Shown piece after piece: positions 3,855 to 20,000 of a stretch of DNA of 20,000 nt. The first letter of the stretch is position 1. Every line of letters starts with the position of its first letter. The position numbers and the translations under genes were made by a program. The stretch is from an uncultured virus (IMG/VR IMGVR_UViG_3300037466_001780) (Duplodnaviria > Heunggongvirae > Uroviricota > Caudoviricetes), in the IMG/VR virus record IMGVR_UViG_3300037466_001780. The stretch is one strand, 5' to 3'. The notes beneath the pieces were generated by a model. It did not search any database and had not been told where the DNA came from. It saw only the letters and a list, made by a program, of their open reading frames with translations.

Positions 3855-6800
3855 TTATTGTCCCAAATTAATAGGCTTACCGAAGGGACTTAGGAGTTGG
3901 CCGATTGCGTCTAGGATGCTCGTCTCTCCGCTTCCAACATCATAGGCTGTGCGCCCATACTTTCCGCCAATATTGCCTAAAGCGTATTTAGCCCATGCGC
4001 CGGGGTCGAACCCGCCCTTATACTCTCTTTCATAATCAATGGGCTTCCCGGTGTAAAGGCTTTTGTTAGTTGCAACTTCCGTCGGAACTTTGAACATCGG
4101 GTTGAGCGACGAAAGCCCGTACCGGAGCGTTTCCGGAACGCTGCCGCTTAACACTTCATTCAGGTCGTTCAGCGGAAGCATAGGATCGCGGCCTTTGCCA
4201 AGCACTTTGAAGTAAGAAGGAACGGAGTACCCCGGCATGTCGGAGTTGTCGCCTTGATTCGCCCTCTTAATTCGCTCGTAAGTGCTGTAAAAACGCGGTT
4301 GCTGTGCGAGTTTTTCGATCTGAAGCGGGACGTTGTTTTTCATCCAGTTCCAGAACGGCACGATAGTCCGCATCACCCGGTCGCCTGTTGTCATTTCGTG
4401 ATAATTGAATAAGTGCTTGCGAACCAAATCTGAAGCGTGCTTCGTGGAGCCTGTTTCCAGCCCCTTCATAAACAGCGCAAGCCGTGTCACGTTGTCGGCA
4501 GGCTCCCCGAGTATTCTCCGCATCCCTTTAGCGACTTTGTTGTTATACATAAAGTGCGCTACTTTTGCGGTTCCGCCTTTTGCTTGACCGCTTTTAAGGT
4601 ACTCGGTCGGGTTGCCTTGATGCAGGACGCCCGTTTCAAGGGCTTGATCCCATACTTTCTGCTGTTCCGCTGTCGCTTTGCCCCGCTTCATGGCAATCAT
4701 CAGTTTCCCGGCATCAACGTAGTTCTTACTAGAAACGCCAGCGAGTGCGTTATTAAACAAGTTACCTGTGAAGTTGTTCATATAGTGCGATGGAACGTAG
4801 GTCGTATAAACTGAACGGATGATGCTCGTCACATTTTCGGCCAAAGTCAGGAACTTTTGAAAACCCTTATCCGTAAAGACTTGATCCGTTTTCTTCATCG
4901 CGTCGAACACTTCTTTATGAATCAACGTTCCCGGCTTTAGGTTGAGTGCGCCCGCTTCTTCCTTCGTCAACTGATGGAATTGACCTTTCACCCTAGCCGC
5001 TTCCGGCGTGTTGCTAATTGTATCGCGGATTAACCCGTTCTTCCGAAGTCCGTCCTGCAAGTCTTTCATCGCCCGGACTTTGATAGACTTGGTGTAACGT
5101 TTACCGAGCGCGTCGATAGGATCACGTTCGAACAGATTGGATAGAATGTCGATTTTATCGTTGATTTCTGCCAACGCTTCCGGATCGGTCGTTTTCTTCG
5201 CAGCGTCATCCAACTTATTAAGCGCATTATCAAGTTCCGCGAACGAATCGAAGGACTTCCGTTCTTTCGAAAACTTACTGCTTGTTCCCTTGGCTACGAG
5301 CCTTGCGAACGATTCGTCTTTCTTTGCGTACTCCGCAGCCCTGTCAAGCGCGTCCTGCGAAAGGTTTTTGATAACGTGCGGAGCGTAATTCGGAAGAACG
5401 CCCTGAAGAATACCCCGCTTGCTTTCTTCGCTGGCGATCTTTTGATAGATCGGACGAAGTTTATTGGCAACGGCCTGTGCGCGGTCTGAAATAGCCACGT
5501 TGTAGTTGTCCGGAAACTTGTTTTCGAGCAGATAGGCAACTTGCTTATTTTCTTCTTCGGAGAAATCCTTCGTCGCTTTCTTCAGGTCAGCAACGACATG
5601 TTCAGCCTCCCGCATCCCGACACGCTTCACGTTTTCGGCGTTTTGGATTTGTTCAGCCGCATGATTTACAATGCCTTCTCCCGCGACACCGAGTGTCCGG
5701 GGATTAAAGACATCGGTAACTTTGCCAATTTGGTCGCCTAGTTTCGACCTGCCGCCCATATCCTGAATGAACTGGTCGAGCGTTTTCGGAAGGCTAAAAT
5801 CTTTCGCAACTTCCCCGGTAATTTTCTGTCCGAGGATAGGCTGGTCAACAATTTCTGCCGTATGGCTTACATCGCCTATTTTCGTAGCCGCATCGTCAAT
5901 TGCAGTACGGATTGCATCGGCGGTTTTTCCTTTAATCGTGCCGGGCAATTTACCAAGAGCCGCGCCGAACGTCCGCATCGCTTCAGGCCCAAGATTACGC
6001 AAAGCAGGAATGTCATTTTCCAAACTTTTAACAAACGGCGCGAGTCGGTCTGCAACTCGCGGATCGAGTTGACTAAGGAAATCTTCGGCCTGAAATGGAT
6101 GATAATTTACAAACTGGTTATGGCCGATAACTTGATCTTCGACATTAAAATCCCGAAGGTTGTTCTTCAAATTGCCGTCATTACCGCGAAACTTGTTGAT
6201 GTAATCTTGGGCGACTTTGGACTGTTCCTGAAGATGGGCAAACTCTTGTACGTTCATGTCTTTTAAGTCATTAACTTCGATACCCATCTTCTTCAGAATC
6301 GCCTTTTGTTCTACATCCGTTTTTGCACCGATGTTGGCAAGGATGTCGGCGGCTGAAGCGGCTCCGGTAAGCCCAATCTTCGCCGGATTCTTCATCAAAA
6401 AGCCCGGTTTTGTGCCGAACTGTTTGGTGATTTTGGTAAATGGGATATCGAGGTTAATAAGCGCGTTTTGTGCTTGCCCACGCGCTGCTTTGCCTGCCCC
6501 TTCAATCGCATCGCGGGCGGCGAAACCTTTCTTAACGGCGAACCGTTCCGCGAGGTCGGGGTTAATACCCTTTGCAATAAGGTCGTTCTTCAGTTTTTCG
6601 AAGATATTAACGGCGGTATTTCCGGCGATATTGGTCAGGTTTTTGCCCTTAGTTGCTGCTTTTACGCCTGCTTTACCTGCTTCTTCAAGCGCGACTTTGC
6701 CTGCTGCTCTTGCCCCGGCCTTCATCGCGGAGCCTGCGCCGAAGGTTAAAAACGTGAGCGGATCGAATAAAATATCCCCCGCAAGCCCGCCCCATTTCAG

Positions 6801-7250
6801 CGCGGCGTCATTCTTCACACCAAAATTTTTAAGCGTTTGATCGAATCCCGGTTCGTTTGCTCCGGCTGAAGCCATCGAGCCGATAATCGGAATGTCCCGC
6901 GCATCGCCTGTACCGTCATTCCAAGCGTCCAACTGTCCTTTTCCAGCGCGAAGCCCAAGCTGAAGGGCATTGATAAATGGGATGTCATTTGCCCGGAGTT
7001 TACCGTCCGACCAAGCATTCGTCAGCGACGTAAGCGGTTTGGACGTTGCATTAAGCGTATGAAGGGCTGTCTGCCAAAGCGGTTGATGATAACCCGAGGG
7101 AGAACCCCCGGACGAACCGGAGGCTTTCGGGTTAAAACTGAAAGCAGCATCGCCGCCGATAGGGACGATAGGGGCGTGTCCTGTCGCGGGGCCAATTATA
7201 TTAGAGCCGATTAAAGCCAATATTTCTTCTGCTGTACGTGCCACATTCAC
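3855..7250 (-). CDS. Large (1131 aa) putative internal virion/DNA-ejection protein with an LPD38-like C-terminus
   Basis: Long ORF, helical and Ala/Lys/Gly-rich; N-terminal hydrophobic GGLAGDILFDPLTFLTFGAG; C-terminal LFNY...IVPFWNWMKNNVP and NPMFKVPTEVATNKSLYTGKPI motifs that I associate with large podovirus ejection/polyvalent proteins; last gene before lysis. CDS is certain, function is inferred. Confidence 0.65.
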   Translation of the reverse strand: MNVARTAEEILALIGSNIIGPATGHAPIVPIGGDAAFSFNPKASGSSGGSPSGYHQPLWQTALHTLNATSKPLTSLTNAWSDGKLRANDIPFINALQLGLRAGKGQLDAWNDGTGDARDIPIIGSMASAGANEPGFDQTLKNFGVKNDAALKWGGLAGDILFDPLTFLTFGAGSAMKAGARAAGKVALEEAGKAGVKAATKGKNLTNIAGNTAVNIFEKLKNDLIAKGINPDLAERFAVKKGFAARDAIEGAGKAARGQAQNALINLDIPFTKITKQFGTKPGFLMKNPAKIGLTGAASAADILANIGAKTDVEQKAILKKMGIEVNDLKDMNVQEFAHLQEQSKVAQDYINKFRGNDGNLKNNLRDFNVEDQVIGHNQFVNYHPFQAEDFLSQLDPRVADRLAPFVKSLENDIPALRNLGPEAMRTFGAALGKLPGTIKGKTADAIRTAIDDAATKIGDVSHTAEIVDQPILGQKITGEVAKDFSLPKTLDQFIQDMGGRSKLGDQIGKVTDVFNPRTLGVAGEGIVNHAAEQIQNAENVKRVGMREAEHVVADLKKATKDFSEEENKQVAYLLENKFPDNYNVAISDRAQAVANKLRPIYQKIASEESKRGILQGVLPNYAPHVIKNLSQDALDRAAEYAKKDESFARLVAKGTSSKFSKERKSFDSFAELDNALNKLDDAAKKTTDPEALAEINDKIDILSNLFERDPIDALGKRYTKSIKVRAMKDLQDGLRKNGLIRDTISNTPEAARVKGQFHQLTKEEAGALNLKPGTLIHKEVFDAMKKTDQVFTDKGFQKFLTLAENVTSIIRSVYTTYVPSHYMNNFTGNLFNNALAGVSSKNYVDAGKLMIAMKRGKATAEQQKVWDQALETGVLHQGNPTEYLKSGQAKGGTAKVAHFMYNNKVAKGMRRILGEPADNVTRLALFMKGLETGSTKHASDLVRKHLFNYHEMTTGDRVMRTIVPFWNWMKNNVPLQIEKLAQQPRFYSTYERIKRANQGDNSDMPGYSVPSYFKVLGKGRDPMLPLNDLNEVLSGSVPETLRYGLSSLNPMFKVPTEVATNKSLYTGKPIDYEREYKGGFDPGAWAKYALGNIGGKYGRTAYDVGSGETSILDAIGQLLSPFGKPINLGQ

Positions 7251-7256
7251 ACCCCC

Positions 7257-9644
7257 TTAGTTCGGGTTATACGTATGCCCACCACCGCCGCCACCGTTGC
7301 CGATAACTTTCGTTTTCAGCAGGTCGGCCACGCCTGTTTGTCCCGGCAGTTTTGCAAAGGTGAGGTCGTCAAGGACTTTGGCGTAGGCGTTTTGTGTGCC
7401 TAGCGCGTCAGCGATTGCAGATTGAATTACCTGCTTATCGTGATCGTATGTTGCCGATTTCGGATCGAGTTTCGTAAGTTGCGTGGTGTACGTTGTAATT
7501 TCCGTACCTTTTTGCTTAATAATCGTGGCAAGATTTTTCGCTTGTTGCGACCATTGGGAACTTTGTAATTTATCGGCGTTTTGCGATGCTTTTACGATAA
7601 ATTCATTCATATCCTGATCCAATTTCGCTTTATTGCTGTTTGCTCGTTCGATAATCGCATTCGCAGAGTTAACTTCCGACGCTTGGTTATGCCGAACAGA
7701 TTCAGCCAGTTTCAGCGAGTCGATTGTCGGCTGTCCGGTTGTTGGATCGTAGCCTAAGAATTGCGTCATTTTCAGGTTGTATTCCTGCGATAACTTCGCG
7801 GCGAGTTGTTGGTTGGAATTGTCCATTTTCGCATAAGCGATTTTTTCGTTGCTATCCAGTTTGTCATAGAACTGCTTATCCTGTTGACCCAACTGGTCGT
7901 ATTTAAACTGAAGATTGCCCATATCGGTGTTGTAGCCCATCGTCTTGCCGAGAAGGTCGATCATCGCTTTCGCCCGGTCGGTCATATTCTTGCTTCCGGA
8001 CTCGTACATTTTTTGGAACAACTGTTGTGCGATTTGGCTTGTGTTGACGTTTGCAAACTTCGTACGCGCATCTGCTAGGCTTTGGCTGTACCCGGCTGCG
8101 ACTTTCTGTGCTTGGGCAAGTGCGTCTTGGTTCGCCCGAGCCAGCGTCCGGCCTTGTGACAGCAGGAGGCGGGTATCCTGATCGTTCGCAAGCCCCGATC
8201 CGGCAAGGCCGCGATTTGCCATCGCCTGCCGAGCCTGAAGATAGTCTTGGAACGTTTTATCCTGCAAGTCCTGTTTCGTGTTGGCTAGTCCAGAATTGAT
8301 CCGCGAGAGGTCGGCCTCTTGGTTGGCGTTTAGCGAGTTAATAAGATTCGTGAGCGCGTCCCGCTGTTCTTTGGCCTGCGCTTCGGCTTGGGCTTGGGCT
8401 TGGGCCTGCATGTCGGCTTCGCTTTGTTGGTTCCCGGTGAGCATATCCAAGATGATTTTAATAAGGTCGTTTTGGTCGGTCGGGGCTGCTGCTTCCGTTG
8501 TTCCTGTCCCGGTTCCCGTTCCCGTCCCGGCTCCTGTCCCGGTCGAACCTCCGCCAAACGTCCAATGGCCTGAAGCATCACGCTTCCCGCCGTTGGCCGT
8601 GCCGTAATCCAAAGCCTCTTTTGCGATTCGGTCTTTGTCGGCCTGCGTCTTGGCGTTCTTCCATTGTTGGCCCAAATCTGCGATATGGCGTTGAATCGGG
8701 TCATTATAGTTGAAGTTATTGATACTGCTTCCATAGTCAGCAGGAAGCGGAGGTTCCGCCGCCGACGAAGGAAGTTCAACCGGATTTGTAATAACAGAAC
8801 CCGGCGAAGTCGTGCCCGGAGGAATCGTTGGCGACGGCGGGGTATCAATTGAAACCGGGCCTGTCACTCCAGCATCAACCGGAACCGAGATGTTCGGGAT
8901 ACCCGGATCGGTCGAAGTGGTTGGGAAAGTCCATTTTCCTGCCGCACTCCGATGTCCGCCAGCGGCTTCCCCAATTTGTTTCGATTCCGCCGCGATACGA
9001 TCCTTTTCAGCCTGCGATGTTGCATTTTTCCACTGTTGTCCAAGGTCGGCAATCTTCTTCATAAACGGATTGCTAGGATCGAAGTTTTCGATACTGCTTC
9101 CGTAATCTGAAGGGGTTCCGGTTGCCGTTGGAGCCTCTACCTTCTCTACGGGCGCGGGCGGTGGTGTCACAACGGGGGCAGGCGGCGGTGTTACGACAGG
9201 CGCAGGCGGTGCTGTTGGAGCAGGCCCGGACACGACTTGCCACGTTTTTAAAAGCGGACTGTCTTTCGTAACTTCGATGATGTTCCCGTTAATAGGCGAT
9301 TTAACGTAATATTTCTGTGTATCAGCAACAGGCGCGATGACAGGCGGTGTTCCGGCCGGGGCTGAAGAAGCAGGTGGCGGTACGGTCGGGTGTTGCTGCG
9401 TCTGCGTCGGCTGCTGTACCGGGGGTGAAGTCGGAGGAGGCGTTGTCTGCTGGCTCGGCTTATTAGCTGCGGCAACATAGGCATCATAAAGTGAACCGCT
9501 GGAATTTGTATTCGTATTCGTATTCGTATTAGTAGAAGTAGAGGAACCGCTCGGGCCTGAAACGACTTGCCACGTTCTTAGAAGCGGGCTGTTTGCGGTA
9601 ACTTCAATGATATTTCCGTTAATAGGAGATTTTACATAAGGCAT
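7257..9644 (-). CDS. 795-aa repeat-rich protein, putative ejection/pilot protein
   Basis: N-terminal half is Pro/Thr/Gly low-complexity with two duplicated domains; C-terminal half is Gln/Ala coiled-coil containing MANRGLAGSGLA, resembling the RGLxxSG motif of podovirus DNA-transfer proteins; RBS AGGGAG at 9660-9655. Confidence 0.6.
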   Translation of the reverse strand: MPYVKSPINGNIIEVTANSPLLRTWQVVSGPSGSSTSTNTNTNTNTNSSGSLYDAYVAAANKPSQQTTPPPTSPPVQQPTQTQQHPTVPPPASSAPAGTPPVIAPVADTQKYYVKSPINGNIIEVTKDSPLLKTWQVVSGPAPTAPPAPVVTPPPAPVVTPPPAPVEKVEAPTATGTPSDYGSSIENFDPSNPFMKKIADLGQQWKNATSQAEKDRIAAESKQIGEAAGGHRSAAGKWTFPTTSTDPGIPNISVPVDAGVTGPVSIDTPPSPTIPPGTTSPGSVITNPVELPSSAAEPPLPADYGSSINNFNYNDPIQRHIADLGQQWKNAKTQADKDRIAKEALDYGTANGGKRDASGHWTFGGGSTGTGAGTGTGTGTGTTEAAAPTDQNDLIKIILDMLTGNQQSEADMQAQAQAQAEAQAKEQRDALTNLINSLNANQEADLSRINSGLANTKQDLQDKTFQDYLQARQAMANRGLAGSGLANDQDTRLLLSQGRTLARANQDALAQAQKVAAGYSQSLADARTKFANVNTSQIAQQLFQKMYESGSKNMTDRAKAMIDLLGKTMGYNTDMGNLQFKYDQLGQQDKQFYDKLDSNEKIAYAKMDNSNQQLAAKLSQEYNLKMTQFLGYDPTTGQPTIDSLKLAESVRHNQASEVNSANAIIERANSNKAKLDQDMNEFIVKASQNADKLQSSQWSQQAKNLATIIKQKGTEITTYTTQLTKLDPKSATYDHDKQVIQSAIADALGTQNAYAKVLDDLTFAKLPGQTGVADLLKTKVIGNGGGGGGHTYNPN
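8556..9107 (-). repeat. Duplicated 61-aa domain in the 795-aa protein (copies 8925-9107 and 8556-8738)
   Basis: DYGSSI.NF....P....IADLGQQWKNA..QA.KDRIA.E....G.A.GG.R.A.G.WTF; 38 of 61 residues identical by hand alignment, no gaps. Confidence 0.95.
9222..9638 (-). repeat. Duplicated 29-aa motif in the 795-aa protein (copies 9552-9638 and 9222-9308)
   Basis: YVKSPINGNIIEVT(AN/KD)SPLL(R/K)TWQVVSGP; 26 of 29 residues identical, with many synonymous differences. Confidence 0.95.
9508..9530. repeat. In-frame hexamer microsatellite (GTATTC)3 GTATT encoding a Thr-Asn run
   Basis: Directly visible in the sequence; a similar (GGCTTG)3 at 8385-8402 encodes a Gln-Ala run. Confidence 0.85.
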
Positions 9645-9669
9645 GACGAGTCAACTCCCTTCGGACAGG

Positions 9670-9698
9670 ATTTTATCATATTTTGGAGGATGTGTATA
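9670..9698 (-). promoter_or_regulatory. Candidate sigma-A promoter for the 795-aa / 1131-aa / lysis genes
   Basis: Minus strand: TATACA (9698-9693), 17-nt spacer, TAAAAT (9675-9670) with an extended -10 TG at 9678-9677; sits between a terminator and the RBS. Confidence 0.55.
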
Positions 9699-9701
9699 CT
9701 G

Positions 9702-9731
9702 AAAAATAGGAGGGCTGAATTACAGCCCTCC
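9702..9731 (-). terminator. Intrinsic terminator after the XkdX-like gene
   Basis: GGAGGGCTG (9709-9717) / CAGCCCTCC (9723-9731) perfect 9-bp stem; minus-strand tail TATTTTT. Confidence 0.85.
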
Positions 9732-9751
9732 CGTTGTCAGGGTATTACGTC

Positions 9752-9889
9752 TTAACGCGGCGTGGCGATAATCGTATCTGCTTCTTCTTGGGTGAGATAG
9801 CCTTTTGTGACCGCGTTTTGGATGCCTGTTTCGTCTATGGTGTAGTTCTTCCAACTGGAAAGGAAGTACGCATAGAGTCGGCTTGTCAT
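9752..9889 (-). CDS. XkdX-family small protein (45 aa), not in the ORF track
   Basis: Hand translation MTSRLYAYFLSSWKNYTIDETGIQNAVTKGYLTQEEADTIIATPR*; the AVTKGYLTQEEA motif is typical of XkdX; canonical position after tail fibre and XkdW-like genes. Confidence 0.85.
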   Translation of the reverse strand: MTSRLYAYFLSSWKNYTIDETGIQNAVTKGYLTQEEADTIIATPR

Positions 9890-9892
9890 CGG

Positions 9893-10471
9893 TTACACCC
9901 CCAAGAGAAAGTTTACGGCTTCTTGTGTTGCGGTTAAGTCTGACCGGATTTCCGAGATTTGCTCCGGAATTGTAGGCGGGGCTTCGGGCTGAATAGGATC
10001 GGGAACTTCGACCGTTTCGTAAGCCATCTCCAAGCCCTCTACATAGTAAGGACTATCCGCTGTAATTTCGAGCGGTGGCTGCGCTTCGTACCGAACGGCG
10101 GGTTCCTCTATCGTTGTCCAGTATAGCGGATTGCCGTCGGAATCTTGTTCCTGTACTTCTTCAGTCGTCCAAAGCTGAAGAAATTGGCCCGTACCTTCCT
10201 GCCCGACGATATCGCCGTCGCGCTGTCCGATTACGTTTCCTTCTTCATCGAGGATGTCGATCTGCTCGTAAACCGGACGGGTCACTTCGTACTGCTTTTG
10301 GACGCCGTTTTCATCCATCATTGGCACCCGAACTGCGACCATTACAGGGGTATACGTTGCATCCACCGTTTTCTCCTGATGCGGGATCGTGTATGTTACT
10401 TCCAAATCCGCTTGCGGGAGAAGGTAAAGCTGCTTACCTTCTCCATCCACTTTCGGCTGTTGTTCGAGCAT
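9893..10471 (-). CDS. Acidic XkdW-like tail-fibre-associated/chaperone protein
   Basis: Lies between the tail fibre and XkdX; C-terminal PPTIPEQISEIRSDLTATQEAVNFLL coiled-coil is typical of this position; AAGGGAG RBS. Confidence 0.7.
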   Translation of the reverse strand: MLEQQPKVDGEGKQLYLLPQADLEVTYTIPHQEKTVDATYTPVMVAVRVPMMDENGVQKQYEVTRPVYEQIDILDEEGNVIGQRDGDIVGQEGTGQFLQLWTTEEVQEQDSDGNPLYWTTIEEPAVRYEAQPPLEITADSPYYVEGLEMAYETVEVPDPIQPEAPPTIPEQISEIRSDLTATQEAVNFLLGV

Positions 10472-10475: not shown

Positions 10476-13400
10476 TTACACTCCCTTCACAAGCGGTCTG
10501 CCCGCCAGTTTGAAGTGGTCGTAAACGGCTTCTGTCGATTTGAAAAGCAACGTACTGCTTTTGCTTTTGCGGAACGACACGACAACCAATTTCAATTCCC
10601 CGGAATCTGAAACGAGCATAGGTAGATAAATAAGGGCTTCGGTCGGCAAGGTTGTCGGAATGCTGAACTTGTAATTTCCGAGAGCGACACTTCCGCTGAC
10701 TGTATCGGAAGATAGCCGAACATCTTGCGTACTTCCCCTTACAACCGATTCACTTGTCGTGGAGTTAGGCTCGAAGTAAAGTCCTGCCGTTGGTACAAAG
10801 CGGTAGTTTCCGCTCGATGCAAGCGGCATCCGTTTCAACGTAAGACTGTCAAACGTCGTCAGTACACCTTCACTTGTAAACTTATCCGCGATCAAGTTGT
10901 AATCTGCTGTCGGAGACGGCAGGCGAGTAGTGATATTTTTATCGCCTACCGGATCGCCATCCGAAGTCGCAGACCCCGTTCCAAGCGTCGTGATAATCGG
11001 CGTACCTACCGCGAGTATCTTCGACTTGCTAATCGAACCTTGCCCCTGATACGGAACATACCGATACCACAGTTCCACTTGGGACGCTTCGCCAAGATTA
11101 CCGCCGAGATACTTGCTCGATTTCGCCGGGAACCAAAGTTTCATTTCCTTCGTCTCGGGCCGGATTTTCACGATGTTGCTCTTGGTGTAATCCACGTAAT
11201 CGGCAAGGGTTACGTCCAGTTTCACATAGTCGGTGTAAATGTTCGACGGATTTGTTGCCGATGCCGGGTAAGTGGAGTGAACGAGAACGTAAATTTTTTG
11301 GTTATTGTCGATATATGTGTTACTGGACGTCGTTTGGCTGATGGTTGCAGGCGAAGATGTCGTATTCGTGCCGTAAAGCGTATCTCCGCTTGTAGACCAA
11401 GAACCCTTCCACGCTTTCAACGTCGCTCCGTTCGTCAGAACCGAAGCATTATCCCCCGAGCCGTACCCTGTCCACGAAATGGTCATGGAACGAACCGCCG
11501 CTTTCAGTTGCGCCGTCGTCATGCCAAGATGCGAGAGGTCGAATTCGTAAATAAACTGTGCGTACTCTCCCGTTGTGCCTGCGGAATAGAAGTCAAGTAC
11601 ACCGTCTTGTTTAACAATGCTGCTGTATTCCGAATTGCTGATTTCCCCTGTTACGGTTGTGGGATTTGGAAACGTTGAACCGTGCGTCCATAACCCCCGA
11701 TGCGGAACCTCCACCGTACTCCCCGCCACTTTGCCGAGGAAGTTGAGCGTGACTTTCCGCTTGCGCCCCGGTGTCCATTCGGTTGCGGTTACACCCTTTT
11801 GAAGTTTTATTTGGGACACGTTAACCGTAACCGCCGAAACACTTGGAGTTCGGAAGTATAATCTGATAGCAGAAGAAGTGTCTGCGTCCGCTTTTCCAGT
11901 AAGCGTAATCTTAGTCGGTGTAGAGGAAAGCGTTACAGATTGTGCCGCCATTTGCACTGAACTGTCGCGGTATAGTTGAACATTAATCGTTCCGCTACCG
12001 CTTACCAAGCATGTTGCGGTAAAATACTCTCCCGCTTTTGCACTTCCTGCCGATAATACACCACCTTCGGGTGAAGATGTTCCGGGCGTAGCGATGGTAA
12101 TAGTGCCGGGAGTTGTTACAGATAAAGCACCGCCGTTATACGACGCCCATCCAGAAGTGTCTAGTGGGAATGCTTGGTTTTGATCTAGCATATTTTCCGA
12201 CAATACCGGGAACGGGTTCGTCGGCTGCAAGGTCGTAAACCCGCTTGCTTCCGTTGTGCTGTCAAACGCAGAGATTGCCGACGTTTTAAGCGTGATGGAC
12301 AGTTCAACATAGTCCGTATTTATGGTCGAAGCCGTTACGCCGTCCGATGCGTCTGCGTAAGCTAGAGCGTAATAGAAGCCGTTAGAATCCACTACGGAAG
12401 AAATTACGGTGTTATTTCTAGTCAGTGATGTAACCGTTCCGTTGGTGTGGGAAGCTGGGCTTGCATTCCATGCGCCATTAATCCATTCAGCAACATAAGC
12501 CTTGTTTCCCGCAAGACCCGAACCGTATCCATTCCAAGTACAACTAATCTGCGTGATGTTGTTTGTCAGCCATGTCTTTTTACTCGCCGTACCGTCTGCC
12601 GGGATTTCGCCGTACTTATCTTCGATAGCCCGGATGAGGTCGAATTGGAAAACGTGCTGGCTTACGTCATTCAAAGTTGCGCGGCTTGTTGTCGCCAGCG
12701 TTCCATCCAAGGCAAAAGCGTTATTATAGTTTGCTTGGCTAACCTCTGTACCTCCCGGTGATGGAGTGAGTGAGGTTGTCGTGATGATACCTTTAAGCGT
12801 GTGTGGGACTAAATCTGTACTTCCCGACACTTTCCCCGCAAAATTCGCCTTCACGCTCACCGTATTCGCTGCAAGAAGTTCATCCCCGTTGACCGCTGCT
12901 TTCAGAATATCCGTCGCCACTTGCGGGAGTCCCTTGCCTGCCGGATAGTTGACCGCATACGTGATCGTGATGTTACTTGTGTTCGTGGTCGGAGCCGTGG
13001 TGATCGTGTACGTTGCATCCTTTGTGCCGAGTCCGCTCCATGTTCCGGCGATGCCCGTGGCAGTGACGGTTGGGAGGGATGAAGATGTCTCCAAAAGGTA
13101 TGTCCCGCTTACAAAGTTAAGTCCTGCGCCGCCTGTCCACGAAAGCGTAGCCGTTGAATTGGTAGAATCAACGGAATCCACGGTCAAATCTGTTACCGTG
13201 TAAGTCGAAACTCCGTCGAAGCGGGTTACATGATCGCTTGCCGTAAACTTCGAAACGTCGCTAACTTTAATTGTCGTTGGTGAAGTTACGCCTGTTTTAT
13301 CCTCTAGGATTTTCGAGAATCCCGCCGTTGCTCCGGTTATTCCGCCATAATCCGAGTGAATCTTAATCGTATCCCCGATAGCCCATACGCCCGATGTTGC

Positions 13401-16400
13401 TTGCGTCGGGATAACATGCTTCGGACGGTTTACGCCGTTCCAAGTTGGATCGACCACATCCACGACGGTTATCGACTGCTGCGGGTCGCCGTAGGCGATC
13501 CGTTGCCCGTTGAAGTTGCCACCGTTTATGCCCTCGTAGTGGAACGTCGAAAGCGTGCCGGACTGAACCATGTGACCGTTGGCGAGATAGTCTTTGTCGA
13601 GATACCAGCGTCCGTAAGGGACGAATGGGTTTACGACGGAGCCTTTTTCTAGTTGCGGGAGCAACTTCGATACGTCGTCGGGAACGTTGGTTGAAGTTGG
13701 ATTATTACTCAGACGAATCTTTACTTTTGCCGTATTTGCGGCTGTCGTGAATGTTCCCGAAGGCGCAAAAGCTGTTCCTTGCACTACAAAAGTGCCGTCG
13801 CTTTGATACTCAAAAACGGTAATCGAACCCCCGTTTGAACTAACGGAATATTGCGTGTTTGGTTGAACCGGGATGAGGTTAATCGTTCTAATTCGAGAAG
13901 TTGTACTTGCGTTATTGCCGCTTGAATCATAACTGCCTTGCTCCCACGCATCCACCGTTGTCGGGCAAAGATTCTCCACAAAATTCGGGTACGAATCCAC
14001 ATACGGGAACAACGCACCGATCTTATCCCCGCCAGTCCAGTTCGCGTCAACGTCGATCAGGTTGTAGGTGGCTTGGTCGATTTGGTAAACAGCAAGACCA
14101 TAAGCCTGCCCTACGGTATCCCCCGTCGTGATCTCCAAACTTGGGATAAGTGTCGATGCGCTCCCGGTTGTTTGATATTTCAGGTACGTTGTTACATACT
14201 TCGTCGTATCAGACGTATTGCTTACGGCGGCTGTACTTACTCCGGCAACGGCGGGATTTGTAGATGAATTTTCACGCAAGTACATCGAAACAAGACCGCT
14301 TCCGCTTATCTTCTTTACGGTCGCCACATAAAGGTAATACGTATTTGGCTGAACCGCAGTAGAAGTAAACATTTTATTAAAAGGTACGGTACCGGAGAGT
14401 TTGAATACGCTTCTGCCATCTTGCACAATCACAACGGTCGCAGAGCCTAATGTCCATCCGCTGACGGAATCGCCGCGCCCCATAACGCCGATCTTATTGC
14501 TCAAATCCACGCTCGTCCCGTCAGCCCGCTTAACCGCCGTGCTGTTGAGTGTTTGCGCCAGCCCAAGCGGAGCCTTCCGAAGACCGTAAACGTCCTTTTG
14601 CGCCAGTTTCGTATCCTTGGTCGTCAGCGCACCGCGCATAAGGTTATCGAACGTGGATTCGACTTCCATGTTCGGCATGAAGTTAACCGGAATCCGATGG
14701 CGAAGGTCGATAATGTCCGATGCGTCGATGATGTTGGAGTAAAGGCCGTCGGGACGATGATCGGGCGCTGAATAAAGACCCCACGTACCGTTGCCGATGC
14801 TAACAAGAGTTGTTTGATTCGTACTTGTGTTCATTACCGTTACTTTGTTAGACCCGTCTTTTGAAAGAACATACACGCGAAGCGTTGGATTGCTCCCGAA
14901 GTTATTCAATGTGTCTCCGACTTGAACGTTATTGTAATCTGCCGCAGACAGTGTAATTTGCTGGTTTGAACCATAGGGAAGTGATGGAGAAAAGACTACA
15001 GATTGAGTAGTCGCCCAAAAATCCCTTGCCCCGTTCAGATTATCCCGCCGATACCCGCCGCTGTTACGACGCTTGATGCGGAAAAGGGGAATCGCGTAAA
15101 CGTAGCCGTCGTTGGTGGCGAGGTTCGTCTTTGAACTTGCATCACCCAATCCGGCGATATACAATCCAACATCGTCGGTAAAAATTTTCTTCGCCGTTAT
15201 GCCTGTTGCTTGTCGCGCAGATGCACTATAAAACGTATAAACGTTCGACACATCAGGAGCCGTCATCGGCGCACCCGCACCGCCTTGTGCCAACGTGTAT
15301 TGGTTCATAATGTTAAGCGGAGTTGCGAATCCGTCCACGCTGTATGTCCCAAAATCCACGCCATCGACCACGCGAATACGCCAAGACAGTGTGCCGCGCA
15401 CTCCGGTAGGGAACCATGCTTCGAGGAATACCAAGTCCTCGCGGTATCCGTAGGTTGGCGGGGCGTTGAGGGTAATAGCGGAATACTGTGTTCCGCCCGG
15501 AGTGTAATCGGCTTTATTGACCGATATTTTATATCCGTTAATCACTGCCGTTTGTGTGGGCATCCCGAAAGAGTTTAGTGGAGTGGTATTGTTTTGTGAC
15601 CACAGCAATAGCGGGAATCCATTCACACTGTTAGCTGGAGTTTTATTCGCATTGAAGTCCACCACGCCAGAATAACTGCGCTGGCGTTCAAAATCCGCCC
15701 TTACAGCATCAAGTGAATCAAAATCAGATTGCAAGGCCGTACCATTGGGATTGATTGCATTAATCTTAACCCACGCCGTACCTGACCATCTCCAGAATCC
15801 GTTATTGCTAGAAGTGCCATCAGCAGTTACCGAGTAAGCATCACCAGTAGCAGGAGATCCGGGCAGAGCAGCAAAGGTTACAACTGAACCTTTCCATTGG
15901 ATAGCCATGTTGGTTTGAATCGTGGTGAAGTTGGTCGTTCTTGTAGATTCAGCACTTACACGAGCATTTTCTGCATTTACCCGATTTCCCTCATTATTCG
16001 CCCTTGCATTTTCTGCGCTAACTCTACTATTTTCGGCAGTTACCCTCGCACTTTCAGTAGCAGACATATTGTTAACTACATCAGCAAGTGTTTCTGTAAC
16101 GGTGCCATTATCTTGTTGAGTCCATACCCTAGTAGAACTTATGTAATGATTTCCTCTGCCCATATAGGAGACGGAAACGGTTTTGCCTTCTTCGCTTGCT
16201 GCAAACTGAACAATTCCCTCGCTATAGTCAACAATGAACCCGGTTGCGCTTAATCCGCCAATAGGAATAGTCTTATTTTCAACATAACCTTGAATAGTCA
16301 CTCCATTTTTTGAGACCGGGATTTCTGCGAGTTGTATTTGTTGATTGATGATCTTTTTTGACTCGCTTAGAGGGAGAAATGGGTCGTCTATCTTACCCGA

Positions 16401-16442
16401 TCTATATTTGGTTATAGTGCTCGGTGTATATTCTATACTCAA
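10476..16442 (-). CDS. Giant tail fibre / receptor-binding protein (1988 aa) with an SPbeta YomF-like N-terminus
   Basis: TTG start with AGGAGG RBS; N-terminal GKIDDPF...QLAEIP...FIVDYSEGIVQF..SEEGK..V.YMGRG...RVWT resembles YomF as I recall it; AExxRxx heptads; Ser/Thr-rich beta domains with CBM-like ends (QLEKGSVVNPFVPY, KLQKGVTATEWTP). Confidence 0.85.
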   Translation of the reverse strand: MSIEYTPSTITKYRSGKIDDPFLPLSESKKIINQQIQLAEIPVSKNGVTIQGYVENKTIPIGGLSATGFIVDYSEGIVQFAASEEGKTVSVSYMGRGNHYISSTRVWTQQDNGTVTETLADVVNNMSATESARVTAENSRVSAENARANNEGNRVNAENARVSAESTRTTNFTTIQTNMAIQWKGSVVTFAALPGSPATGDAYSVTADGTSSNNGFWRWSGTAWVKINAINPNGTALQSDFDSLDAVRADFERQRSYSGVVDFNANKTPANSVNGFPLLLWSQNNTTPLNSFGMPTQTAVINGYKISVNKADYTPGGTQYSAITLNAPPTYGYREDLVFLEAWFPTGVRGTLSWRIRVVDGVDFGTYSVDGFATPLNIMNQYTLAQGGAGAPMTAPDVSNVYTFYSASARQATGITAKKIFTDDVGLYIAGLGDASSKTNLATNDGYVYAIPLFRIKRRNSGGYRRDNLNGARDFWATTQSVVFSPSLPYGSNQQITLSAADYNNVQVGDTLNNFGSNPTLRVYVLSKDGSNKVTVMNTSTNQTTLVSIGNGTWGLYSAPDHRPDGLYSNIIDASDIIDLRHRIPVNFMPNMEVESTFDNLMRGALTTKDTKLAQKDVYGLRKAPLGLAQTLNSTAVKRADGTSVDLSNKIGVMGRGDSVSGWTLGSATVVIVQDGRSVFKLSGTVPFNKMFTSTAVQPNTYYLYVATVKKISGSGLVSMYLRENSSTNPAVAGVSTAAVSNTSDTTKYVTTYLKYQTTGSASTLIPSLEITTGDTVGQAYGLAVYQIDQATYNLIDVDANWTGGDKIGALFPYVDSYPNFVENLCPTTVDAWEQGSYDSSGNNASTTSRIRTINLIPVQPNTQYSVSSNGGSITVFEYQSDGTFVVQGTAFAPSGTFTTAANTAKVKIRLSNNPTSTNVPDDVSKLLPQLEKGSVVNPFVPYGRWYLDKDYLANGHMVQSGTLSTFHYEGINGGNFNGQRIAYGDPQQSITVVDVVDPTWNGVNRPKHVIPTQATSGVWAIGDTIKIHSDYGGITGATAGFSKILEDKTGVTSPTTIKVSDVSKFTASDHVTRFDGVSTYTVTDLTVDSVDSTNSTATLSWTGGAGLNFVSGTYLLETSSSLPTVTATGIAGTWSGLGTKDATYTITTAPTTNTSNITITYAVNYPAGKGLPQVATDILKAAVNGDELLAANTVSVKANFAGKVSGSTDLVPHTLKGIITTTSLTPSPGGTEVSQANYNNAFALDGTLATTSRATLNDVSQHVFQFDLIRAIEDKYGEIPADGTASKKTWLTNNITQISCTWNGYGSGLAGNKAYVAEWINGAWNASPASHTNGTVTSLTRNNTVISSVVDSNGFYYALAYADASDGVTASTINTDYVELSITLKTSAISAFDSTTEASGFTTLQPTNPFPVLSENMLDQNQAFPLDTSGWASYNGGALSVTTPGTITIATPGTSSPEGGVLSAGSAKAGEYFTATCLVSGSGTINVQLYRDSSVQMAAQSVTLSSTPTKITLTGKADADTSSAIRLYFRTPSVSAVTVNVSQIKLQKGVTATEWTPGRKRKVTLNFLGKVAGSTVEVPHRGLWTHGSTFPNPTTVTGEISNSEYSSIVKQDGVLDFYSAGTTGEYAQFIYEFDLSHLGMTTAQLKAAVRSMTISWTGYGSGDNASVLTNGATLKAWKGSWSTSGDTLYGTNTTSSPATISQTTSSNTYIDNNQKIYVLVHSTYPASATNPSNIYTDYVKLDVTLADYVDYTKSNIVKIRPETKEMKLWFPAKSSKYLGGNLGEASQVELWYRYVPYQGQGSISKSKILAVGTPIITTLGTGSATSDGDPVGDKNITTRLPSPTADYNLIADKFTSEGVLTTFDSLTLKRMPLASSGNYRFVPTAGLYFEPNSTTSESVVRGSTQDVRLSSDTVSGSVALGNYKFSIPTTLPTEALIYLPMLVSDSGELKLVVVSFRKSKSSTLLFKSTEAVYDHFKLAGRPLVKGV
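11205..12855 (-). repeat. Duplicated domain of about 185 aa in the tail fibre (approx. 12287-12855 and 11205-11755) flanking a CBM-like domain
   Basis: Shared motifs NFAGKVSGSTDLVPH / NFLGKVAGSTVEVPH, FQFDL / YEFDL, TWNGYGSG / SWTGYGSG, INTDYVELSITL / IYTDYVKLDVTL. Confidence 0.85.
15940..16056 (-). repeat. Heptad (21-nt) AExxRxx coiled-coil repeats in the tail-fibre neck
   Basis: TESARVT AENSRVS AENARAN NEGNRVN AENARVS AESTR. Confidence 0.85.
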
Positions 16443-16462
16443 CCAAGTTGACCTCCTTTTAT

Positions 16463-16496
16463 AAAATAAAAGAAGAAGTCAATAATTGACTTCTTC
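16463..16496 (-). terminator. Intrinsic terminator-like hairpin between the FN3-like and tail-fibre genes
   Basis: GAAGAAGTCAA (16472-16482) / TTGACTTCTTC (16486-16496); minus-strand tail TTTTATTTT. Confidence 0.75.
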
Positions 16497-16532
16497 GGTG
16501 AGTTGTTTTCATATGTTAAATAAAATCTTGAT

Positions 16533-17723
16533 TTACGGGATACTGTTTAGCGAATCACGTAAGCCATTTAGATATGATGCCAAAACATCCTGCCCACTTG
16601 AGACCGAAGAAGGCGGGGAAGTGGGGGGAGACATACTCGCAATAGCTGTTCGAACCTCATTAAACATGTTGGCAGTAAACGAAAACCCTGATGAAAAGAA
16701 ATTGTTGTATGTCCACGAATAAGCCGACATGCCTTTCCAAGCCCGGAACTGTTGAATTTTATCGAGCAGCGCTTGCCATTCGGTGGCAGTTAAGTTGAAA
16801 TTTCCTCCTGATACTTTGGAAGTTGACCAAGCAAAATTGCTTGGACGAACAGCAGGGGTGGTCGTCGTGACGTTTCTATCAATTGTGGTTTCGTTGCCCT
16901 GCCTGTCCTGCGCGACAAATCGCAGCGCATAGAGTGTTCCAGCGTTTAAAGGATTGCCTAGTCCGTCAGCCGTGATATGCCCATCTGTTCCGCTTGCCGT
17001 AAACGTCGTGCCGATGTTATATAGCGTTCCTCCGCCGGGGCCAGACATGTAAATGTCCAATCGGTTAAATCCACTCTCTGAGTCCGATGACGACCATGTA
17101 AAGTCGATGAAGGTATCTCCCGGAGTCGTACCGATGGTAAGAGACGGCGGCGTGGTGTCCACCAGCAAACTAATGCTTGCTGAACCACTCCCACCCGATC
17201 CACCAGCGTTTGTCGGCGTGACGGTGAGTGAATAACTGCCCGATGATTGGTTCGTCAGTGTAAGACTGGTTAAGGTTGTCGTCCCGCTTGCTGCGCCAGA
17301 ATACGTGTAACCCGTAGCCCCACCCGGATTGCTCCATGAAAATGTTACATTTGCGGGAGCGTATGTAGCGGAACGGCTTGCCGACACAAGACCTGAAAGA
17401 CTGTTAGGGAGGGATGTGAACGAATTGCTTCCGCATGTGAACCAATCCCCGCTTACCGTTCTTACGCCACCATACAGAGTATAAGAGTTTCCCGCTGAAG
17501 TGGCCCCGCTCACCGATATCGTATTTGTTGATGTGCTACTGTTTACACTCGGGGCAGATTGACTCGAAACAAGACCACTCGGTTGCGTACTTTGCCCGTT
17601 TGTAAACGGAGCATTGAAAAGCGCAGCAGTTGTATAGAAACTAGTGTTAAATGGATTAGAAAGCCCACTGATCGACCAGTTAAATGACGTTGGGCCTGTG
17701 GGTGAACAATTTGTTGAAGGCAT
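16533..17723 (-). CDS. Ser/Thr/Gly-rich fibronectin-III/Ig-like tail protein (396 aa)
   Basis: Start moved to ATG 17723 (GGGAG RBS at 17735-17731; the longer ORF start lies inside a terminator). FN3-like motifs (VTFSWSNPGGATGY, YSLTVTPTNAGGSG, DTTPP, LNAGTLY); C-terminal RPSNFAW...FNLTATEW...FRAWKG domain seen in Bacillota phage tail proteins. Confidence 0.8.
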   Translation of the reverse strand: MPSTNCSPTGPTSFNWSISGLSNPFNTSFYTTAALFNAPFTNGQSTQPSGLVSSQSAPSVNSSTSTNTISVSGATSAGNSYTLYGGVRTVSGDWFTCGSNSFTSLPNSLSGLVSASRSATYAPANVTFSWSNPGGATGYTYSGAASGTTTLTSLTLTNQSSGSYSLTVTPTNAGGSGGSGSASISLLVDTTPPSLTIGTTPGDTFIDFTWSSSDSESGFNRLDIYMSGPGGGTLYNIGTTFTASGTDGHITADGLGNPLNAGTLYALRFVAQDRQGNETTIDRNVTTTTPAVRPSNFAWSTSKVSGGNFNLTATEWQALLDKIQQFRAWKGMSAYSWTYNNFFSSGFSFTANMFNEVRTAIASMSPPTSPPSSVSSGQDVLASYLNGLRDSLNSIP

Positions 17724-17753
17724 ACTTTCACTCCCAAATTGAAAAAAGAAACG

Positions 17754-17781
17754 AAAAAAGTCCTCCATGACAAGGAGGACT
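17754..17781 (-). terminator. Intrinsic terminator upstream of the FN3-like gene
   Basis: AGTCCTCC (17759-17766) / GGAGGACT (17774-17781), 7-nt loop; long minus-strand U-rich tail. Confidence 0.8.
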
Positions 17782-17788
17782 GGAAACT

Positions 17789-17821
17789 TTTACAATATGT
17801 GTTCGTATAATTGTATATAAT
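17789..17821 (+). promoter_or_regulatory. Probable sigma-A promoter region of the moron
   Basis: Two perfect TATAAT boxes (17806-17811, 17816-17821) and TTTACA at 17789-17794; -35 spacing is not ideal for either box. Confidence 0.45.
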
Positions 17822-17852
17822 GTAGTTAATAATTAATGATGAGGTGAATGAT

Positions 17853-18518
17853 GTGAGGAAATCTGTGATTGCAATTTCAAGTTTTCTTGTTGGTGTTTCT
17901 TGTATGACTATCACTTCTGCATTTGCTCAGACCCCATTGAAGCAGGTTAAGGCTTTCATTCGTAATGATTTAACCATTAAAGTTAATGGAAAAGAAACTC
18001 AAACGAACAATGACATAATTATTTACAACGACAGAACATATTTGGCCCTTCGGGATATAGAAGAAGTCTCAGGAATTATGGTTGGTTGGGATCAGAAGAA
18101 GAAGGAAATTTCTATTAAAACGGAAACCAGTGATCCATCTAATAGCAGCAACACTAACTCTGATCCGGTTTTAATCCCAATTCCGCCTGCAACTCCATTT
18201 GAGGTTGTCGATCCTGACACTAAAAAAATAGTTGCAAACGCACATCCACCGATTGTTATTAATGGTATTACTTATGTAAATGTTGGCGTACAACTTATGC
18301 TTCACGACTTGCCTTGGGATATAATAAAAATTCAATATAAAGAGAATGATTTTCCCATTGGTTTTGATATCAAATTAAAAGATGGAACTGTCGCACATTA
18401 TAATGCCTACTTCATTAGTAAGAATGTGGATACTAATTCTGCTGATCTGCTATTCAATACCTCTAGGAATTACTACATTAAGGAAGATATCATGAATTAT
18501 CTTATCAATAATATTTAA
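17853..18518 (+). CDS. Secreted copper-amine-oxidase N-terminal-like (stalk) domain protein; antisense moron
   Basis: GTG at 17853 with GAGGTG RBS; signal peptide MRKSVIAISSFLVGVSCMTITSAFA; IKVNGK...IIIYNDRTYLALRDIEEVSGIMVGWD stalk motif; AT-rich (18/60 GC in line 18361); its stop shares TTAA with the convergent tail gene. Confidence 0.85.
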   Translation: MRKSVIAISSFLVGVSCMTITSAFAQTPLKQVKAFIRNDLTIKVNGKETQTNNDIIIYNDRTYLALRDIEEVSGIMVGWDQKKKEISIKTETSDPSNSSNTNSDPVLIPIPPATPFEVVDPDTKKIVANAHPPIVINGITYVNVGVQLMLHDLPWDIIKIQYKENDFPIGFDIKLKDGTVAHYNAYFISKNVDTNSADLLFNTSRNYYIKEDIMNYLINNI

Positions 18519-20000
18519 CCAAACTTTGCTGTAACAGGAGGCAATCCGTCTACCGTTGCAGTGCTAAAATTTACATGAGTACCGCTAAAATTTACATTGC
18601 CTGCAAAATAAGTTGTACTGCCTACACTTGCATTGCCTATATGGATTGAATCGGATGATACAGTAATATCATTCGTACCTGAGAGCAGCAGATTATCGTG
18701 AGATAATAATAACTGCTCGTATCCTTGGCTCGTATCCTTAAAAATGCCGCCAGTTTGTATTCCGCCTGAATACCACTTTAAGAACCCTGTCGAGCCATCT
18801 AGAGTGAATCCATCTTTAGTCGATGAATTTAAAGATTGCAGCTCTGATCCGCTAAGGACAAGCCTTCTGCCAGTTGTCGCTGTCTGTAACACTCCACCTG
18901 TAATCGTAGGAGAAAATATTTGAGAACCACTAATGAAAGTTCCGCCTGAATAAGTACCATTGGCGATCTGTTGTGCTGTCGTAAGTGCACTATTCGCGGT
19001 TGATGACGCACTTGTTGCAACAGGATCACTGTTCACACTTGACCAAGAAATAGATCCACCGGACATATTAATATCGCCACTAATCGTTGCACCTGTAGCT
19101 GTGAACGTACCATCTACCGCAACTGAAAATTTACTACCTATATTCATGATTCCACTTGTCACATTGATATTAGAGACAGTTAAATCGCTGGCTATTAATT
19201 TTCCATCGATGCCTGCTGATAATTTATCCGTCCAAGTTACTCCATCAGCAGAGGATTGAATCTTAATACCATCTGTACCATTTATCTTTACACGGCTCTT
19301 ATTGTCTGCTCTGCTAACCGTAAGATCCATTGCAGAAACATTCATGCCGTTAGCATCGATACTTACTGTTCCCGCTGAGTTTGTAATAGTGAGATTCACG
19401 CCAGCAAGAATTTGCCCAATAAGTCTCTGAGCATAAACCCCATCAGCATTCATAACGGTATCCCATGTATTACCATTATTATCCGTTAGAGCGATTTGAC
19501 CATGCTGAATTACCACATATTTATTCGGATCTGTTAAATCTCTTGTGATAATTCCTTTGCGGTCAATAGTCACACTTTCATTGTTACTAGCAGTAATGGC
19601 TCTTGCCGCAGCACTCCATACACTGTCTAAAACACTCTGAACTTCATTTACATCTGAAGCAGCAGAATTCCATTTGTATTGATTATTCGAAACTGTGCCT
19701 GATGTAATATTCGATCTATATAGATCTCTGAGAACTCTAGCCTCATCGGTTAAGAGTTCTTTGACGTTACTTATGGTAATGGTGACATCATCTGATTCAT
19801 AATCAACACTAAATCCCATTATTTTTGCTTTAACGTCTATTCCGACTTTTGTGTTGGTGATTTTGATGATGTTGCCAAGTTGAAGTTTATTCCATCGTGA
19901 TTGCTCGGTAATGCATTTCATAAAATTGACAATGCCGATTTCCACAACAATCTTTGGTGTTTTAACTTTTTCAAATTCTTCAACCATAAGATCATAAAGT
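18515..20000 (-). CDS. 5'-partial tail-tip/spike protein, SPbeta YomG-like (siphovirus type)
   Basis: The frame stays open to the window edge (LYDLMVEEF...). WNKLQLGNIIKI...VKAKI...DYE...ITISN, then IALTDNNGNTWDTVMNADGVYAQRLIGQILAG and beta-helical repeats typical of siphovirus tail spikes. Confidence 0.82.
   Translation of the reverse strand, partial: LYDLMVEEFEKVKTPKIVVEIGIVNFMKCITEQSRWNKLQLGNIIKITNTKVGIDVKAKIMGFSVDYESDDVTITISNVKELLTDEARVLRDLYRSNITSGTVSNNQYKWNSAASDVNEVQSVLDSVWSAAARAITASNNESVTIDRKGIITRDLTDPNKYVVIQHGQIALTDNNGNTWDTVMNADGVYAQRLIGQILAGVNLTITNSAGTVSIDANGMNVSAMDLTVSRADNKSRVKINGTDGIKIQSSADGVTWTDKLSAGIDGKLIASDLTVSNINVTSGIMNIGSKFSVAVDGTFTATGATISGDINMSGGSISWSSVNSDPVATSASSTANSALTTAQQIANGTYSGGTFISGSQIFSPTITGGVLQTATTGRRLVLSGSELQSLNSSTKDGFTLDGSTGFLKWYSGGIQTGGIFKDTSQGYEQLLLSHDNLLLSGTNDITVSSDSIHIGNASVGSTTYFAGNVNFSGTHVNFSTATVDGLPPVTAKFG

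Follow-up and report, generated by a model that had tools for sequence, protein, structure and literature searches.

The stretch of DNA described here raises the question whether siphovirus tail genes and podovirus-like ejection genes belong to one virion, or to two phages that were joined during assembly. It comprises 20,000 nucleotides of an uncultured virus of the Caudoviricetes (IMG/VR record IMGVR_UViG_3300037466_001780) and is called the window in the following; all positions are counted from its first letter. On its minus strand a tail tip gene, the gene of an FN3-like protein, a fibre gene, and the genes of two large proteins of 795 and 1131 amino acids (aa), p795 and p1131, follow each other ahead of the lysis genes. 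The original prediction read this run as SPbeta-like siphovirus tail genes joined to ejection genes of a short-tailed phage and offered three explanations, i.e., a recombinant of two phage lineages, a long-tailed phage that retains an ejectosome, or an assembly error at a fibre sequence that two phages of one host have in common. The last of these is favoured here. The window is probably a chimeric contig from two real soil phages, an API480-like podovirus (phage P) and an SPbeta-like siphovirus (phage R), joined by the assembler at a stretch that their fibre genes have in common; a step in depth is seen, and at 14044/14045 no contig bridges the join by more than 30 letters. In all likelihood no hybrid virion module exists, while the sharing of the fibre cassette is real.

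Gene Content on the Two Sides of the Fibre Gene

The left part of the window (1–14044) has 0 mismatches to G001, a 50,271-bp virus record rated complete by CheckV, and the match continues to 14087 with only 3 differences (14045, 14058, and 14084). Right of 14087 the likeness to G001 consists of two patches of about 80% identity (14488–15131 and 15348–15464), and right of 15464 there is none. The virion block of G001 holds terminase, a 151-aa gene, portal, a 281-aa gene, capsid, a 91- and a 192-aa gene and a 658-aa protein, followed by a 2080-aa fibre, p192, p795, p1131, and the lysis genes. In the 46 of its 65 open reading frames (ORFs) that were scanned, the whole structural stretch included, no tape measure, major tail protein or tail tube, Dit, or Tal was found, and the interval from capsid to fibre contains the 91-, 192-, and 658-aa genes only. 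The late operon of phage P would thus run from terminase, portal, and capsid through the 658-aa tail protein, a fibre of about 2000 aa, p192, an XkdX-like gene, p795, and p1131 to holin and endolysin. The GC content of G001 is even (43–53%), and that of the podovirus about 49% overall.

The closest described relative of this gene set used for comparison is Paenibacillus phage vB_PlaP_API480 (MK533143.1), which electron micrographs show to be a podovirus (PMC6937236). Six proteins of G001 are 31–39% identical to API480 over most of their lengths: portal (35%), terminase (36%), the 658-aa protein compared with gp11 (32%), DNA polymerase (39%), primase (33%), and helicase (36%). The two phages also share the late order of a very large protein, a BhlA holin, and an endolysin. 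On the other hand, API480 has one 1631-aa gene (gp16) where phage P has p795 and p1131, it has four mid-sized tail genes against the single 2000-aa fibre of phage P, and it is without annotated FtsK or Replic_Relax. Judged from its genes, window 1–14044 is most likely part of an API480-like short-tailed phage of about 50 kb and a new member of the API480-like podoviruses.

A wider comparison was made with 30 loci that carry a p1131 relative (29 virus contigs and 1 contig of a metagenome-assembled genome, MAG), against which the window proteins were compared by tblastn. By this measure p1131 had relatives in 29/30 loci, the phrog_1981 protein in 24, FtsK and Replic_Relax in 18 each, and p795 in 13, each time directly before the p1131 relative in the direction of transcription. 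The fibre was represented in 2/30 loci by a 200-aa piece, and p192, p411, p224, and Tal (all described below) in 0/30. Of the G001 proteins outside the window, the 658-aa protein was present in 21/30 loci and DNA polymerase in 14/30, while the tape measure, Dit, and Tal N-terminal part of phage R gave 0 matches in the 30 loci. Four loci examined ORF by ORF with PHROGs (73 ORFs) have the order tail protein, fibres or spikes, p795-like protein, p1131-like protein, holin, endolysin, and then FtsK and replication genes; no tape measure was found in these four except one 77-aa domain fragment. As far as gene order tells, the p795/p1131 pair is a conserved late module of API480-like podoviruses. Since relatives of p795 and p1131 adjoin YomG/YomF-type genes in 0/30 loci, the discordance between long-tail and short-tail genes seen in the window is real, and the proposal that the two might turn out to be routine neighbours of such tail genes fails.

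The right part of the window could be followed outwards. The tail tip gene (18515–19999, minus strand) encodes the C-terminal 494 aa of a YomG-like Tal that is cut by the window end (phrog_6211, E 2e-59); it matches 96 phage records, each at <60% identity, the listed organisms being mostly Bacillus and Lactococcus phages. With Tal as query the virus contig L038 was found, which overlaps window 19739–20000 at 99.2% identity and itself ends inside Tal. It supplies the N-terminal part of Tal (YOMG_N, E 2.9e-22; Prophage_tail, E 3e-18) and then has Dit (phrog_33, E 3.5e-29) and a tape measure of 1837 aa (phrog_4211, E 3.6e-162). The GC content of L038 is 33–40%, and about 36% for the siphovirus overall. 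Phage R would thus contribute a tape measure and a Dit, then a YomG-like Tal, the FN3-like protein, and a fibre whose N-terminus is YomF-like. The latter likeness lies in fibre residues 5–142, which are about 31% identical to SPbeta YomF (E 1e-11), so that both resemblances named at the outset, to YomG and to the YomF N-terminus, hold. A side observation on L038 is a gene of the tyrosine integrase family at 349–1365 (Phage_integrase, E 5e-22), about 1 kb before the tape measure gene, which is an odd location within a siphovirus tail region.

Between Tal and the fibre lies p411 (16533–17768, minus strand), an FN3-like siphovirus tail protein (phrog_37329, E 7e-22). The label FN3-like rests on tblastn matches of its C-terminal half to proteins of Tsamsa-type siphoviruses that their depositors named 'fibronectin-like', together with a weak Big_3_3 match. 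The order of the minus-strand run is as originally described, except that a plus-strand gene, p224 (17844–18518), interrupts it between Tal and p411. p224 has a Cu_amine_oxidN1 domain (PF07833, E 5e-10) and a GC content of 33–37%, and it resembles an accessory gene inserted into the tail module. The arrangement resembles the SPbeta tail tip in that a Tal with YOMG_N and Prophage_tail is preceded, in the direction of transcription, by Dit and a long tape measure, and in the YomF-like fibre N-terminus. It differs in the low identity overall, in the opposite-strand gene and the FN3-like gene that separate Tal from the fibre, and in that the fibre beyond residue 233 is of a Paenibacillaceae type common to the podovirus. 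Window 14045–20000 is most likely a fragment of an SPbeta-like siphovirus.

The two sides meet within the fibre gene. The ORF of 1988 aa (10476–16442, minus strand) is a hybrid of two forms, divided at 14044/14045. Its C-terminal part (10476–14044, from about residue 800 to 1988) is identical to the fibre of the G001 podovirus, whereas its N-terminal part (14045–16442) is of the siphovirus form (phrog_11315, E 4e-35) and lies on contigs of lower depth. The N-termini proper (233 aa for the window form, 327 aa for that of G001) are unrelated; past these the two proteins are about 80% similar at residues 430–655, differ in a divergent cassette at 656–785, and are identical from about residue 799. 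Composition changes as well, from a GC content of about 50% at 3–16 kb to 33–44% at 17.6–20 kb. The tetranucleotide correlation with the rest of G001 is 0.90–0.91 for window 1–14044 and 0.38–0.39 for 16443–20000, while the N-terminal part of the fibre is intermediate (0.59–0.71), which fits a fibre module of podovirus kind that resides naturally in a siphovirus.

Branching and Depth of Contigs at the Join

Sequence of window 11000–19000 was found in 11 soil or rhizosphere runs, 8 of which hold at least half of the sampled words. Contig graph and depth were examined in four runs (X1, X3, X4, and X5) as Logan contigs, with 61–84% covered in each; window parts without contigs in X1 and X3 were not counted as evidence. 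Contigs end at 14044, the exact point where G001 and the window start to differ, and at 12246/12331. The stretch between, 12331–14044, is common to both phages and is the repeat across which the contig was probably joined. In X3 it forms one shared contig of 1714 bases on which both right-hand forms converge. A contig of the R form, i.e., the form of the window, is present at 14015–14550 in X1 and X3 and from 14129 in X5, and at the branch 14044/14045 contigs bridge by an overlap of 30 letters at most. A further contig in X5 fits the window rightward from 12205 and is unlike it to the left. The graph is thus that of a repeat of about 1.7 kb with two ways in and two ways out, and in the window the right branch, of low depth, is connected to the deep branch on the left.

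The depths are uneven in a consistent manner. The contig that covers 8000–11291, which is part of a 16–22 kb contig in all four runs, has a depth of 17.7 in X1, 18 in X3, 21 in X4, and 11.8 in X5, and the G001-form joint from 14087 to 14502 has 20.3, 20.3, 22, and 13.6, respectively. The ratio between the two is steady at about 0.9. Contigs specific to the right side are shallower by a factor of 1.5 to 3, with 13.2–13.4 in X1, 3.3–11.2 in X3, 6.3–9.2 in X4, and 4.8–9.5 in X5. The depth on the left is that of the P form alone in 4/4 runs, and not the sum of P and R that would be expected if phage R, the owner of the right side, also owned the left part. Additive depth is seen only within the shared stretch (34.5 and 28.1 in X1; 23.9 in X3), and left of it the depth in X1 is 16.6–17.7.

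Such a contig probably formed in the following way. The fibre genes of phages P and R have different N-terminal anchors, are homologous beyond these, and are identical for about 1.7 kb at 12331–14044. As this shared stretch is longer than short reads, the assembler could cross from R to P; it would have entered the stretch from R and left it along P. The case is similar to other chimeric contigs in that the graph has two ways in and two ways out at an identical stretch longer than the reads, in that the two sides are of unequal depth, and in that each parent was assembled separately elsewhere (G001 and L038). It differs in the nature of the repeat, which is a real shared fibre cassette and not an insertion sequence or an rRNA gene.

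Several points weigh against this account. The evidence consists of assembled contigs, with neither read pairs nor long reads, and depth is given as one mean per contig, which is noisy for short contigs. Coverage stops at 61–84% per run, X1 being empty right of 15618, and X1 is possibly the sample of the window itself and hence not independent. X4 and X5 show no clear additive depth in the shared stretch, where their contigs differ from the window by 6 and 13, respectively. Sequence of phage R itself left of about 12.2 kb was not found by protein scans of viral and metagenome contigs with the fibre N-terminal part and p411, and exact DNA scans with the loose end of the X5 contig and an R-specific 40-mer gave no continuation of R. 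Finally, one point in favour of a chimera is that the exact hybrid fibre protein occurs in one contig only (75,651 bp), whereas the exact p1131 occurs in six, the longest of which is likewise 75,651 bp; the exact G001 fibre protein is also absent from the protein collection, however, so that little weight can be given to the hybrid fibre being a singleton.

An opposite view is that the join is real. An SPbeta-like phage would then have recombined in its fibre gene with a podovirus, from which it would have gained FtsK and the lysis genes together with p795/p1131 and the end of the fibre. The join leaves the fibre ORF intact and does not shift its frame, fibre genes are in general prone to recombination, and the existence of the R-form contig in X1 and X3, and from 14129 in X5, indicates that phage R truly runs into P-identical sequence. 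Such an event is nevertheless unlikely. The far-left depth equals that of P alone in 4/4 runs, both gene sets are found together in 0/30 related loci, composition changes across the join, the hybrid fibre protein is confined to one contig, and, as an independent podovirus genome agrees with the window at all 14,044 bases, a real join would need a very recent event. The improbable product would be a hybrid virion, in which ejected proteins of podovirus type accompany a tape-measure tail, or a tailed phage that carries the ejection module as a spare. The first two explanations originally offered, the recombinant phage and the long-tailed phage with an ejectosome, are not supported. It may also be imagined that the hybrid is a rare natural recombinant, well below both parents in abundance, that the assembler reported by chance. 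Contigs drop rare variants, and P and R co-occur in at least four runs; on the other hand nothing positive speaks for such a recombinant and phage P already accounts for all the depth on the left, which makes this the least probable of the explanations considered. A chimeric contig built on a real shared cassette is therefore preferred.

Significance of the Shared Fibre Cassette

The real elements behind the window are ordinary in kind: a new API480-like podovirus, part of an SPbeta-like siphovirus, and a fibre cassette that the two came to share recently. The 75.6-kb source contig is unsuitable for use as a phage genome, and it serves as a warning on assembly artefacts. Of more general interest is that the same fibre stretch of about 1.7 kb, identical in both, is present in a siphovirus of about 36% GC and in a podovirus of about 49% GC, which implies that fibre cassettes have been exchanged recently between tail types. 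The exchange probably took place on a shared Paenibacillaceae host, and relatives of the fibre occur in Paenibacillus, Cohnella, and Chengkuizengella genomes. Fibre genes are recombination hot spots. Logan contigs break further within this fibre gene (window 11264–12924), at 11291, 11412, 12246, 12331, 12626, and 12924, and X3 contains a podovirus with another allele at about 11.3–12.3 kb; the gene looks like a patchwork of cassettes exchangeable among co-occurring strains.

The Putative Role of p795 and p1131

With p795 and p1131 assigned to phage P, the remaining question is whether they are ejection proteins. p1131 (3855–7250, minus strand) is a large conserved late protein of API480-like podoviruses and a candidate internal or ejected virion protein, and p795 (7257–9644, minus strand), rich in repeats and coiled coils, directly precedes it in the direction of transcription. 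We lean, with some reserve, towards the view that both would be packaged in the virion and released at infection, where they might help the DNA to cross the Gram-positive envelope; we infer every step of this scheme.

Of 1.84 billion representative proteins, 4451 are relatives of p1131 at E<=0.001; 50,697 phage records yielded a single match, a weak one, in the 'Podoviridae sp.' genome MW202795.1. A genome collection gave no match with the single p1131 protein and one MAG contig with a profile. Its conserved core is formed by the last 380 residues, with 15 invariant residues among 42 sequences, a PFW motif included. When compared with hhalign, a profile of 134 C-terminal domains matched API480 gp16 (1631 aa) with Prob 97.6 and E 3e-12; the C-terminal domain of gp16 is thus homologous to p1131. 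The gp16 gene directly precedes the BhlA holin. When unpurified API480 particles were analysed by mass spectrometry, gp16 was represented by 71 peptides, with a coverage of 60.75% (PMC6937236). The same 134-sequence profile also matched, more weakly, gp47 of podovirus phi24B, a protein of 2807 aa (Prob 86, E 5e-6). Like p1131 this is a large protein of a short-tailed phage that is encoded with virion genes, and the p1131 C-terminal domain aligns collinearly, if distantly, to its residues 2219–2525, running into the LPD38 domain (2490–2695). A section of a preprint on phi24B places the protein in the virion proteome and describes it as absent from the cryo-EM map, and the authors propose ejection (10.64898/2026.04.10.717836). 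Large polyvalent proteins, as argued in a passage of the paper that treats them, are injected with DNA (PMC5512222).

A number of findings speak against this view. The API480 particles analysed by mass spectrometry were unpurified. With the smaller profile of 42 sequences gp16 still reached Prob 95, whereas phi24B fell to Prob 16, which is not significant. LPD38 was detected neither in p1131 at E<=10 nor in any of 46 distant relatives, and 1/19 long relatives matched below the cut-off; p1131 and its relatives thus stay below the Pfam threshold for LPD38, and p1131 also differs from the LPD38 polyvalent proteins in being without LPD5, LPD1, and MuF_C domains. An LPD38 lead from the ESM Atlas (rank 24) was not borne out by Pfam either. 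Neither p795 nor p1131 has a match in Pfam, PHROG, or PDB sequences beyond apolipoprotein-type coiled-coil noise in the latter, p795 has no match among the phage records, and for p1131 PHROGs gave weak partial matches to four of its relatives. No membrane helix is predicted in the two proteins, the highest 19-residue Kyte–Doolittle mean being 1.2.

It is against this background that a different role has to be considered, i.e., that p795 and p1131 are not ejected but are external tail parts (needle, knob, or wall-binding), or packaged polyvalent-type anti-defence cargo without a role in a DNA channel. Neither p1131 nor its 42-sequence profile shows similarity to solved ejection proteins of the T7 type among PDB sequences, and the lack of a membrane helix fits equally here. 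The distant link is to an LPD-domain protein, a class that part of the paper on polyvalent proteins assigns to conflict functions (PMC5512222). Two p1131 relatives have weak partial matches, of E about 3e-8 and with none of the stretches sufficient by itself, to PHROG 'tail fiber protein; host specificity', and a terminator-like hairpin divides the pair from the fibre group. We regard such a role as possible yet distinctly less probable than ejection, as the location, last in the virion operon, is kept in 29/30 loci, the proteins are very large with a strongly conserved C-terminal domain, and the related phi24B protein was not observed by its authors at the outer surface of the particle (10.64898/2026.04.10.717836). 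The resemblance to ejection proteins that was noticed at the outset is supported only indirectly, through the findings on gp16 and phi24B. The motifs on which it had been based are present, RGLAGSG in p795 and DPLT, PFWNW, and NKSLYTGKPI in p1131, while as markers of ejection proteins they matched no library.

The ejected proteins gp14, gp15, and gp16 of T7 (196, 747, and 1318 aa) are roughly similar in size to p192, p795, and p1131. As in T7, the proteins are large, the phage is short-tailed, the genes belong to its virion operon, and the proposed role is the same. The difference is that p795 and p1131 have no sequence similarity to any solved chain and no lytic transglycosylase domain, and that their genes lie after the fibre and not before it. 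The idea that p192, p795, and p1131 are a trio of this kind was dropped because p192 groups with the fibre and the XkdX-like gene, with the terminator-like site after them. Likewise, gp16 of API480 is not supported as a fusion of p795 and p1131, as a p795 profile found no match in gp16 (Prob 0.08).

Irrespective of the mechanism, p1131, itself unmatched by any Pfam or PHROG model, represents a large unnamed family whose genes close the virion operon of API480-like podoviruses. The family is a good candidate for the DNA-delivery proteins that short-tailed phages use on Gram-positive bacteria. A relative is found at 7435–10755 in MW202795.1, a circular 42.6-kb 'Podoviridae sp.' genome with WhiB genes, as the last large gene of the virion block, after a 'hydrolase' gene; the family thus reaches phages of other host phyla. 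p795 itself contains internal duplications (DNA at 9223–9309 and 9553–9639 is 82% alike, and a second motif of 60 aa occurs twice), Pro/Thr-rich linkers, a (TN)n and a (GT)n run, and a Gly7 tract near its C-terminus.

Other Features of the Window

No tRNA genes or Rfam families were matched in the window, and megablast of 3855–20000 against phage records gave no match. After the fibre, in the direction of transcription, comes p192 (9893–10471, minus strand), which has no family match and is also present in G001, and then a 45-aa ORF (9752–9889, minus strand) that matches PF20787 (SPP1_GP23-1) with E 1.4e-12 and XkdX below the cut-off (E 0.02). Of the XkdW/XkdX pair that had been suggested for this position, XkdX can be retained in a loose sense, whereas XkdW was not found in p192. 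The terminator-like hairpin between the fibre group and p795 (9708–9732, minus strand) has a 10-pair stem with 7 G–C pairs followed by a T run, and is a consensus match only.

Beyond p1131 the lysis cassette (2828–3842, minus strand) comprises, by Pfam and PHROG matches, a BhlA-like holin (3609–3842), a glucosaminidase endolysin (3007–3642), and a holin (2828–3010). It is followed by the phrog_1981 protein (1999–2487, plus strand), which is 40% identical to a region of API480 annotated as resolvase, an FtsK/SpoIIIE-like ATPase (733–1923, minus strand; PF01580, E 9e-10; phrog_1358, E 4.7e-53), and a replication-relaxation protein (270–833, minus strand; Replic_Relax, E 1.9e-8; phrog_2190, E 1.2e-24). 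At the left edge, on the podovirus side, is the C-terminal part of an RDF-like protein (3–260, plus strand; Phage_VG64 of Pfam, E 9.5e-33; phrog_478, E 4.5e-33), the gene of which is whole in G001 (14871–15251).

The FtsK/SpoIIIE and Replic_Relax genes (270–1923) form a conserved pair just past the lysis genes in 18/30 loci, while the RDF-like gene occurs in 2/30. The translocase and the relaxase-like protein sit in a phage with its own polymerase. The pair had been regarded as a trait of Bacillus podophages of the Page/Pony type. An FtsK/SpoIIIE gene is indeed reported in a passage of the announcement of phage Page (PMC3990757), but pairs of FtsK and replication-relaxation genes are also found in Geobacillus siphoviruses and therefore do not mark podoviruses. 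In one of the related phages (L009, 18652–21903) a ribonucleotide reductase gene is present in two pieces, of 455 and 307 aa, with the gene of a LAGLIDADG homing endonuclease between them.

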